Notes: a model not told the origin generated them from the sequence alone. A stretch of 12,133 nt of DNA from a virus (IMGVR_UViG_2703718828_000006), one strand, 5' to 3'. Positions 1,391 through 3,086 are shown, numbered from the stretch's first letter. Program-made: numbers and translations.

Positions 1391-1426
1391 GAAAGGGCCT
1401 TAAACGGCCCACATTTTATTTTTTGC
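1391..1426. terminator. Bidirectional rho-independent terminator between the convergent portal-like and cargo genes
   Basis: GGGCC-ttaaac-GGCCC hairpin (1395..1410) with a T-tract after it on the plus strand (acattttattttttg) and a T-rich tract on the minus strand (tttcattt). Lies between the stops at 1388 and 1416. Confidence 0.6.
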
Positions 1427-3086
1427 TAAACATCAAGCCTGTAGCTGTTCTTTTATAATTGGTTAGTTTTTCCTCTCTATTTTTAAAACTAGTTCTAATA
1501 TCTTTTAGAGTTGGCAAACCCAATGTCCCAAGTGTAAAACTAGCCAAGGCTAATTCAGGTTTGTTAATTAATGCAGAAGCAATACCGAAAGCACCATTAA
1601 CTATAAATGGTGCAACTTCCACACCTAAAATTCTTAGTTTTTCTTTTCTGATTTTCTCAAGAAAACGTTGATGTTGAATAAATGCCCTATCCACATTATC
1701 AATTACCCTTTGTGAAGAAGCATTATAATCACGAGGAGATGCACTAATTACCTCAGAAATACCGATTGATAGAATATTTCGTATTTCCGGCATTAATCCG
1801 TTACGCCTTATTTCAAGGATGTTATTCAAAGGGATATCTCCTAACCAAGAAAAACCGCCTTGCATCCCTTTGGATAAAGCATTGACCATATGTAACTCTT
1901 TTAAATTTTCATTATCAATATTAAAGTCAAGAGATTCATATTCCATCAACCAAGTGTAATAAAGCCAAGAGGTTTCTGCATTAATATATGGCGTACTTCT
2001 AAAATCTTGAGCATTTATTCTTGCTGCAAGTGCCTGTGGCATGCGACCAGTGCATGTGAACATCACCTCAATTCCTGGATTACCATTATGAACTGGTGAT
2101 TTCATTTTCTCAGGATCGGCTAAATGCCGTTCTAGTTGCGCTCGTCCGCCGGGTCCCCACTCGGTATCAAAAATTAATCTTTCAGGGCGTTTTAATTCTC
2201 TAAAAACTTTATCAACATCAGTTAATGATAAACTAAAATCAAACAATTCATCCTTACTCTCAAAACTTCTGCCATATAGATATTGAGCATGGGCAAGAAC
2301 AAAAGGCGTTGCGCGCTCATGCAGCCCCTCGTTATCATCACTACTAAAATCACGTTTATCAGGAAGAACTAGTACTATAGCAGGTTCAATATCCTCCAAT
2401 GCTAAATTTCTGTAAGTCATGCATGTTAAAACGTGTTTCATTAATAAGAAACAAAAATGTTTTTTATTAGTAACACCATGTATTTTCCCCACTCTCAATA
2501 TAGGGCACGGTAATATTATTGTATCGATATAAAGACCAGTGCAAGATACTGCATTTTCTGTATATGCAGGAAAAAGATCACCTGCAAAATTTGCTTTTAA
2601 CTGTTCACCATCTTGGAGATGAATTTCACCAATTTCATAAGCTGTCTCCCAAAACTCCTTAACATCAGAAAGCAACTCTGGAAAAATCTGATCTAGATGA
2701 TCTACGAAATCACTTTGTTCAGAAATGAAATGAGCTACTTGATACGGTTGAGCCTTACTTTTAATAAAGTCATCATAAAATTGATAGAAATTGCTGAATA
2801 GAATCTTAAAATACGCTTCTTGAAAGTCAACTATATTGTACTTTTTCTTAATTTCATTACGTTCAAAAAAATGATTTACTGCTGCACCCATCGCTCTGAT
2901 GCGTCCATCAACGGTAGTTGGGTCAACTTTTCCATCAGGCCTTAACCTAATTTTATCGAAACTTTCTTTAAATCCATCCACAAGATGGCTAGCGATATGC
3001 ATTTTACCAGCTTCAAGTTGTCTCTTGATTAAGAAAACACGATCAGTCAGACCAGATATGTAATCCTCATCGTAACCATTGTCCAT
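1416..3086 (-). CDS. Hypothetical 556-aa protein in an AT-rich cargo island; candidate anti-phage / abortive-infection effector with C-terminal hydrophobic segments
   Basis: Uninterrupted 1.67-kb ORF in a block that is visibly AT-rich compared with its neighbours. Track start is a TTG at 3092; the ATG at 3086 (MDNGYDED...) has a GAGGG ribosome-binding site 6 nt upstream. Two hydrophobic Gly/Ala-rich stretches near the C-terminus (VAPFIVNGAFGIASALI and LALASFTLGTLGLPTL). No recognisable catalytic motif. Confidence 0.8.
   Translation of the reverse strand: MDNGYDEDYISGLTDRVFLIKRQLEAGKMHIASHLVDGFKESFDKIRLRPDGKVDPTTVDGRIRAMGAAVNHFFERNEIKKKYNIVDFQEAYFKILFSNFYQFYDDFIKSKAQPYQVAHFISEQSDFVDHLDQIFPELLSDVKEFWETAYEIGEIHLQDGEQLKANFAGDLFPAYTENAVSCTGLYIDTIILPCPILRVGKIHGVTNKKHFCFLLMKHVLTCMTYRNLALEDIEPAIVLVLPDKRDFSSDDNEGLHERATPFVLAHAQYLYGRSFESKDELFDFSLSLTDVDKVFRELKRPERLIFDTEWGPGGRAQLERHLADPEKMKSPVHNGNPGIEVMFTCTGRMPQALAARINAQDFRSTPYINAETSWLYYTWLMEYESLDFNIDNENLKELHMVNALSKGMQGGFSWLGDIPLNNILEIRRNGLMPEIRNILSIGISEVISASPRDYNASSQRVIDNVDRAFIQHQRFLEKIRKEKLRILGVEVAPFIVNGAFGIASALINKPELALASFTLGTLGLPTLKDIRTSFKNREEKLTNYKRTATGLMFSKK

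Follow-up and report, generated by a model that had tools for sequence, protein, structure and literature searches.

A candidate single-gene anti-phage cargo with a putative DitB-like core in the cos-adjacent slot of a P4-type satellite

The viral DNA stretch IMGVR_UViG_2703718828_000006 (12,133 nucleotides; the whole of it is called the window here) is filled by a P4-type satellite, in which a gene on the minus strand (1416..3086, stop codon included) encodes a protein of 556 amino acids (aa) in the space between a cohesive-end (cos) site and a portal gene. We read this gene as a stand-alone, membrane-anchored and distant relative of DitB, a protein of the Aditi defence system, carried as single-gene anti-phage cargo in a cos-adjacent slot that is common to P4-type satellites and P2-like phages, and we give this reading a probability of about 0.55. 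An anti-phage role for the gene, taken by itself, is probable; we infer both this activity and action at the membrane from sequence, a structural model and genomic context. The defence reading is preferred because the profile relatives of the protein are defence proteins, because the slot is a defence hotspot and because defence genes occur among the neighbours of its homologues. The AT-rich composition of the gene, together with the breadth and conservation of its family, supports a real, conserved and horizontally spread gene.

The original prediction, made from the sequence of the window, had presented the gene as an undescribed system, a description that goes too far because the family is listed as system 79 in Table S5B of Rousset et al. 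2022 (PMC9122126). It was catalogued there without a name and apparently lies outside the set that those authors cloned, the motifs of system 79 not being found in their Table S2 of cloned systems. New here are the links to DitB and Avs1c, a three-part architecture, the lack of a fold match in the PDB, the breadth of the family, and a satellite context with a breakpoint in cos. We think it possible, at somewhat under even odds, that the gene is the first representative of a broadly distributed family of one-protein defences (763 clusters in Gamma- and Betaproteobacteria and beyond), with a fold not represented in the PDB, a DitB-like core and membrane-inserting helices of its own.

If the gene protects against phage, a compact single-gene system would be added to the defence catalogue, from a family that is common in Klebsiella, Salmonella, E. 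coli, Serratia, Yersinia, Xanthomonas and Burkholderiales, and with a link to Aditi, which has been validated but for whose two proteins no relatives could previously be detected. Were our reading true, a lone DitB-like protein that brings its own membrane element would provide a simpler biochemical entry to the Aditi family, and the block of cos, cargo and portal would show helper phages and satellites swapping defence cargo at their shared cos ends. The near-identical satellites, which diverge exactly from the cos core onwards, and the helper-type portal that the satellite carries offer a tidy case in nature of apparent cargo exchange between P2-like helpers and P4-like satellites.

Architecture and distant relatives of the protein

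The AlphaFold (AF2) model of the 556-aa protein has a predicted local distance difference test score (pLDDT) of 81. It begins with a helical module of approximately 125 residues that is partly Avs1c-like, weak similarity to Avs1c being located in a helical segment at residues 16-73 (2868..3041, minus strand). An alpha/beta core follows, its DitB-like part spanning residues 135-472 (1671..2684, minus strand) as judged by hhalign, a PADLOC hidden Markov model (HMM) and the order of secondary-structure elements; it contains a four-stranded sheet (strands 164-167, 189-192, 238-240 and 365-367) with flanking helices, and polar residues are invariant after the core strands (D170, N178, D188, K217/H218, H266, R348/Q351 and N369/T372/S373). 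Beyond the core there is a helical region with a long helix (454-489), two hydrophobic helices and a conserved basic tail ending in TG-L-x-F.

The original prediction had pointed to two Gly/Ala-rich hydrophobic stretches at the C-terminus, and these are borne out. They occupy residues 489-527 (1506..1622, minus strand) with an NKPE turn between them, and form a putative membrane hairpin. Mean Kyte-Doolittle hydropathy, computed by hand, is 1.87 for residues 491-507 (VAPFIVNGAFGIASALI) and 1.49 for residues 512-527 (LALASFTLGTLGLPTL); AF2 places helices at 491-507 and 510-521 with low pLDDT, and the E. coli homologue is entered with '2 TM', that is, two transmembrane (TM) helices predicted by Phobius, in Table S5B of Rousset et al. 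2022. In an alignment of 32 family sequences, which has a mean column identity of 61% and approximately 70 invariant positions, G488, G498 and G523 are invariant.

No match to the protein was found in Pfam or PHROGs; NCBIfam returned a sub-threshold match to Avs1c only, PADLOC sub-threshold matches to DitB and Avs1c only, and a sequence-profile search of the PDB nothing below E 0.05. The AlphaFold model, good as it is, matched no known fold among the solved and viral structures searched. Hence, the original prediction was right to recognise no catalytic domain, and the profile searches that it had proposed produced no confident family match, although they did point to a putative, distantly DitB-like core and a weakly Avs1c-like N-terminus. 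Across four libraries, the profile relatives of the protein are defence proteins only.

Because these matches to DitB and Avs1c are weak, the link to DitB was tested in four ways. The PADLOC DitB HMM matches residues 215-398 of the 556-aa protein (E 1.1e-4, 19 bits), and it also matches 20 of the 32 diverse family members, with a best E of 7.3e-10, as well as short and long variants of the family. When a DitB family alignment was built from the DitB sequences in the supplement of the Aditi paper and compared profile against profile with hhalign, the outcome was one colinear alignment, 300 columns long, of residues 135-472 with DitB 46-372 (E 1.4e-3; probability of 17.5%), which pairs the top conserved motifs of each family: EFW with vFW, VLVLP with IYILP, GRMPQA with YLaQAf, and TPYINAETSW with IPYIRFxVAF. 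Furthermore, the AlphaFold model of DitB (pLDDT 88.8) has core strands at 64, 89, 138 and 256, against 164, 189, 238 and 365 in the 556-aa protein, so that the elements succeed one another alike in the two models, shifted by a nearly constant number of residues, and the short and long helices between the strands correspond. On these sequence comparisons and predicted models, the core is likely to be a distant homologue of DitB, although this falls short of proof. DitA, the partner of DitB, was not matched in the 556-aa protein, in the other window open reading frames (ORFs) scanned, in family members or in their long forms; since DitA is absent, this is not an Aditi system.

Both PADLOC and NCBIfam (NF041811) detected the similarity to Avs1c at residues 16-73, with E 1.3e-3 in the former and 1.9e-3 in the latter, and it recurs across the family, 15 of the 32 members matching with a best E of 1e-4, and the Photobacterium homologue with E 1.7e-6.

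The variable slot, its contexts and the family

The cos-proximal gpA-gpQ locus of P2-like phages and the cos-adjacent locus of P4-like elements were described as anti-phage hotspots by Rousset et al. 2022, and the gene lies beside cos as in their definition of the hotspot, which in a circular satellite extends from psu/delta to int. The satellite backbone occurs in E. coli with 99.9% identity from window position 3188 rightwards, whereas sequence to the left is unrelated (megablast); this breakpoint falls inside the cos core at 3183-3201. In E. coli EC1515, a DUF4062 gene fills the space from cos to a portal that is 90% identical to that of the window. The content of the slot therefore differs among otherwise near-identical satellites, as is characteristic of cargo in the cos-adjacent P2/P4 hotspot, and the claim of a self-contained single gene in a variable slot holds: the cargo in EC1515 is a different one, and the ORFs upstream of family members are unrelated across lineages. 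A conserved upstream partner gene was considered and rejected on the latter ground, since the small upstream ORFs of different lineages (Xanthomonas, Ralstonia) are mutually unrelated.

A homologue of 557 aa and 57% identity resides in E. coli P2/186-like prophages, between gpA/DinI and the portal gene, with which it is convergent at a distance of 31 bp. In 17 of 5426 complete E. coli genomes the P2-like prophage segment of cos, cargo and portal is present in full, and another 1279 match at its flanks only. The colinearity between the cos-cargo-portal block of the window and the left end of P2-like prophages, taken with the breakpoint within the cos core, suggests that cargo has been exchanged between helper and satellite at their shared cohesive ends. 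The original prediction had placed the gene in a P4-like hotspot; the cos-adjacent slot was correctly identified, but its far side is formed by a P2-type portal gene and not by gop/beta/cII-type genes and the integrase, as in P4.

Defence genes recur around the homologues. In Serratia, a 45%-identical homologue adjoins the portal in a P2-like prophage hotspot, together with a defence-type AAA_15 ATPase. The Xanthomonas homologue has neighbours that include Gabija-like AAA_15/OLD-TOPRIM and UvrD genes, a helicase-PLD protein, a PhD/PIN pair and insertion sequence (IS) elements; those of Klebsiella aerogenes and Aeromonas are found inside integrase/AlpA islands. The Photobacterium homologue is on a plasmid, near a protein with DUF4238, a domain of a validated defence protein in Rousset et al. 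2022, and the context of the Ralstonia homologue is uninformative. The Serratia ATPase (AAA_15/AAA_21), whose best PADLOC matches are HEC-02A, PD-T4-4_A and AriA, is accompanied in the gpA-portal hotspot by a 202-aa partner without a match, the two being encoded at 5805-7734 of that prophage locus.

The family is large. A word-indexed search returned 251 relatives, of which the best 120 are mostly 553-563 aa long and, wherever a source name is given among these 120, are annotated 'hypothetical'; the relatives range from 99% identity (Salmonella, Klebsiella) down to approximately 43-45% (Ralstonia, Burkholderia, Cupriavidus, Xanthomonas, Aeromonas). An exhaustive profile search gave 763 clusters at the 50% identity level, 263 of them below E 1e-30, including short forms without the first 80 or so residues and long forms with unannotated N-terminal extensions. 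In long relatives of 704-843 aa these extensions contain no Pfam domain, and PADLOC detected no DitA in them, only a marginal HTH_VI match (E 0.0099) in one. The exact window protein was found in 213 blocks of the assembly collection, and at all six places examined it is within the same satellite, set in different chromosomal surroundings. Plasmid-borne members are rare (6 of 72,556 records). Megablast of the gene against E. coli genomes gave no match, the DNA of the E. coli homologue having diverged too far. On a plasmid of Sutcliffiella horikoshii (5830-8086), a short-form relative (452 aa, 22% identity) without the N-terminal module is followed, 1 bp on, by a gene for a 298-aa SEC-C motif protein, which suggests that the family also has a two-gene form in Bacillota.

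The 556-aa gene itself is intact, and homologue starts agree with its ATG start codon at 3086-3084. A Shine-Dalgarno sequence, GAGGG, was read 6 nt ahead of the ATG (3093..3097, minus strand). The TTG at 3092, chosen by automatic ORF calling to give 558 aa, was rejected because it abuts the Shine-Dalgarno sequence and because every homologue begins at the methionine equivalent to the ATG. A sigma-70-like promoter candidate, TTATCA-16-TATTAT, lies at 3132..3159 (minus strand), although such sites are no commoner than in shuffled sequence. G+C content (GC) is 0.32-0.40 over 1351-3000, against 0.47-0.56 on the portal side and 0.48-0.64 on the psu/delta/alpha side, and this agrees with the earlier description of an AT-rich block among satellite genes.

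The gene lies just past both the delta terminator and the cos-like site, as had also been stated, and the full order is delta, terminator, cos, gene, portal, attachment site (att) and integrase (int). The cos-like core GGCGGGCGGGGCTGTGCAC (3183..3201, minus strand) was read from the sequence, as was the intrinsic terminator after delta, CCCGG-N7-CCGGG followed by T6 (3364..3387, minus strand), delta itself ending at 3411. The window cos region resembles the P4 cos printed in Table S2A of Rousset et al. 2022, and the 320 bp upstream of the gene, cos included, align with the same region in P2-like prophages of E. coli and Serratia. A GC hairpin at 1395..1410, terminator-like on both strands, separates the convergent cargo and portal genes. 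Terminators do flank the gene, then, but the isolation by terminators of its own that the original prediction proposed does not apply, since the upstream one belongs to delta and the downstream hairpin is common to cargo and portal.

Mode of action and rival explanations

If the gene is a membrane-anchored defence protein, the C-terminal hairpin would seat it at the inner membrane, where the cytoplasmic N-terminal and DitB-like parts may recognise a cue of an infecting phage. The protein would then stop the infection or exclude it, most likely through oligomerisation of its glycine-rich helices and consequent disturbance of the membrane, that is, by abortive infection; an enzymatic step performed by the conserved pocket is a less likely alternative. 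In either event the lysogen would be protected, and with it the satellite or prophage in which the gene resides.

Several points weigh against this reading. The DitB match of the 556-aa protein is weak by both HMM (E 1.1e-4, 19 bits) and hhalign (probability 17.5%), the family profile matched nothing in hhalign when one DitB sequence took the place of the DitB profile, and the residues invariant in DitB (H80, H90, D93 and D94) differ from those invariant in the family. Since the mechanism of Aditi is undescribed, DitB homology gives no biochemical lead, and the link supports a defence role from which no mechanism follows; a search of the literature on DitB, the mechanism of Aditi and family-member accessions returned nothing past the original description of Aditi. 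With only 16-17 residues each and low confidence in the model, the hydrophobic helices could alternatively be buried or serve in oligomerisation instead of anchoring the protein in the membrane. None of the neighbours of the Cupriavidus homologue is recognisable as a defence gene or as part of a mobile element. Phage protection is a prediction for every member of the family; in Rousset et al. 2022 only about one third of the cloned hotspot systems were active, and the P2 hotspot also carries cargo unrelated to defence, such as partition systems and a cytolethal toxin.

These last observations, with two thirds of the cloned candidates unprotective and non-defensive cargo at home in the hotspot, also favour an alternative in which the gene is a non-defensive accessory gene, or 'moron', membrane-associated and of some other benefit to the lysogen or element, for instance in envelope modification or stress tolerance, and placed in a permissive slot. 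The uninformative Cupriavidus context would suit such a gene, as would the fact that no catalytic or defence domain was confidently identified in the protein. We nevertheless regard it as unlikely, if far from negligible, because the sequence relatives are components of validated defence systems only, and because defence genes recur as neighbours in unrelated genera. A role between helper and satellite, in which the protein would modulate portal, terminase or cos packaging, would explain why the gene travels with cos and portal: in the satellite, E. coli and Serratia it stands between the two, convergent with the portal gene and 27-37 bp from it, and this placement is kept even though the proteins are only 45-57% identical. 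However, the homologues of Xanthomonas, Aeromonas, Klebsiella aerogenes, Photobacterium, Ralstonia and Cupriavidus have neither portal nor cos nearby, satellites that are identical in other respects, like most P2-like prophages, have unrelated cargo in this slot, and no PHROG is matched, all of which makes such a role improbable.

That the gene represents a canonical Aditi system, or a fusion of DitA and DitB, is very improbable. The family does match the PADLOC DitB HMM, but DitA is missing from the protein, from the window ORFs scanned and from the long relatives, and the gene stands alone between cos and portal; a fusion is further opposed by the size of the regions outside the core (approximately 125 and 85 residues), far below the 483 aa of DitA. 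An HEPN-type RNase toxin is scarcely credible. The motif RAQLERH is present at residues 315-321 and could be taken for an R-x4-6-H site, but R315 and H321 vary in the family and only Q317 is invariant, and the protein has neither an HEPN profile match in Pfam or PADLOC nor an HEPN fold match. Rejection of this site vindicates the caution with which the original prediction had treated it. A stand-alone, membrane-anchored DitB relative with an anti-phage function thus continues to be our preferred reading.

The satellite and comparison with known systems

The satellite is integrated at tRNA-Leu(CAA) (11928-12012) and is taken to span approximately 41 to 11950 because a degenerate copy of the 3' part of the tRNA is present at 41-57. 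Leftwards from the tRNA, its genes are the integrase (10501-11832), nearest the tRNA; an AT-rich 212-aa ORF beside it (9832-10470, minus strand); AlpA (9211-9486); a DUF5375 protein (7514-7897); the alpha primase (4845-7517); a 253-aa Psu-like gene (3683-4444, minus strand) and a 90-aa Ogr/Delta gene (3411-3683, minus strand), which form a pair at 3411-4444 upstream of the slot (Pfam PF07455 / PF04606, phrog_6165); and, beyond the 556-aa gene, a full-length P2 gpQ-type portal gene (363-1388, plus strand) on the far flank of the slot, the last gene before att. The portal matches TIGR01540 (E 5e-101) and phrog_68 (E 6e-171), and shares 86% identity with a portal from an E. coli P2/186-like prophage and 90% with that of the EC1515 satellite copy, whose cargo differs. 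P4 itself is not known to encode a portal. The satellite portal may replace that of the helper or may be a hitch-hiking remnant, both being candidate readings.

The 212-aa ORF has approximately 29% GC and matches phrog_30524, with no match in Pfam or PADLOC. In EC1515 an unrelated 324-aa hypothetical protein is encoded at this position, which for that reason may be another slot whose cargo varies. Immediately 3' of the alpha primase gene, GGYGTTCCACCTGTTYCACCT is present in two copies (4726-4746 and 4791-4811) 65 bp apart; they are iteron-like and call to mind the alpha-binding repeats of P4 ori/crr. The 29% GC intergenic stretch from alpA to the 212-aa ORF contains three tandem copies of a 10-bp unit, CACWGTATTA (9722-9761). 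An imperfect direct repeat, ATGCCCC(N5)ATGCCCCCA, lies just inside both att sites (110-130 and 11794-11814), and these copies may be arm-type binding sites of the integrase.

The closest known entry is system 79, an unnamed P2-hotspot system with 49 occurrences and no assigned domain in Table S5B of Rousset et al. 2022, to which the E. coli homologue belongs. It is of the same protein family and is likewise a lone gene, between gpA and the portal gpQ, but it resides in a P2-like prophage whereas the window gene belongs to a P4-type satellite. DitB of Aditi (Millman et al. 2022; PADLOC PDLC03827) resembles the 556-aa protein over some 300 distantly colinear residues, in which motifs are shared and secondary-structure elements succeed one another in like order, and both are without any other known domain. 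At 372 aa, however, DitB lacks the N-terminal module of approximately 125 residues and the C-terminal hydrophobic hairpin; Aditi has DitA as a partner, whereas the window gene is alone between cos and portal; and Aditi was validated from Firmicutes, whereas the 556-aa family is mainly proteobacterial.

Avs1c, the third and small protein of AVAST type 1 (NF041811; PDLC02160), is resembled by way of the weak but recurrent family matches at residues 16-73, although the score of the 556-aa protein is far under the curated cut-off (18 versus 70 bits). Unlike AVAST type 1, there is no Avs1a protease and no Avs1b STAND NTPase here, Pfam finding no such domains in the protein or its neighbours. Other TM-containing systems of P2 and P4, namely Gop of gop-beta-cII (2 TM) and the hydrolase + 3TM and reverse transcriptase (RT)-nitrilase + 1TM systems of Rousset et al. 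2022, are unrelated to the 556-aa protein in sequence or fold but share with it a cos-adjacent position and predicted TM helices, and are thought to kill or arrest the infected cell. Those systems are multi-gene and employ a separate, small TM effector, whereas the 556-aa protein carries its predicted helices at its own C-terminus.

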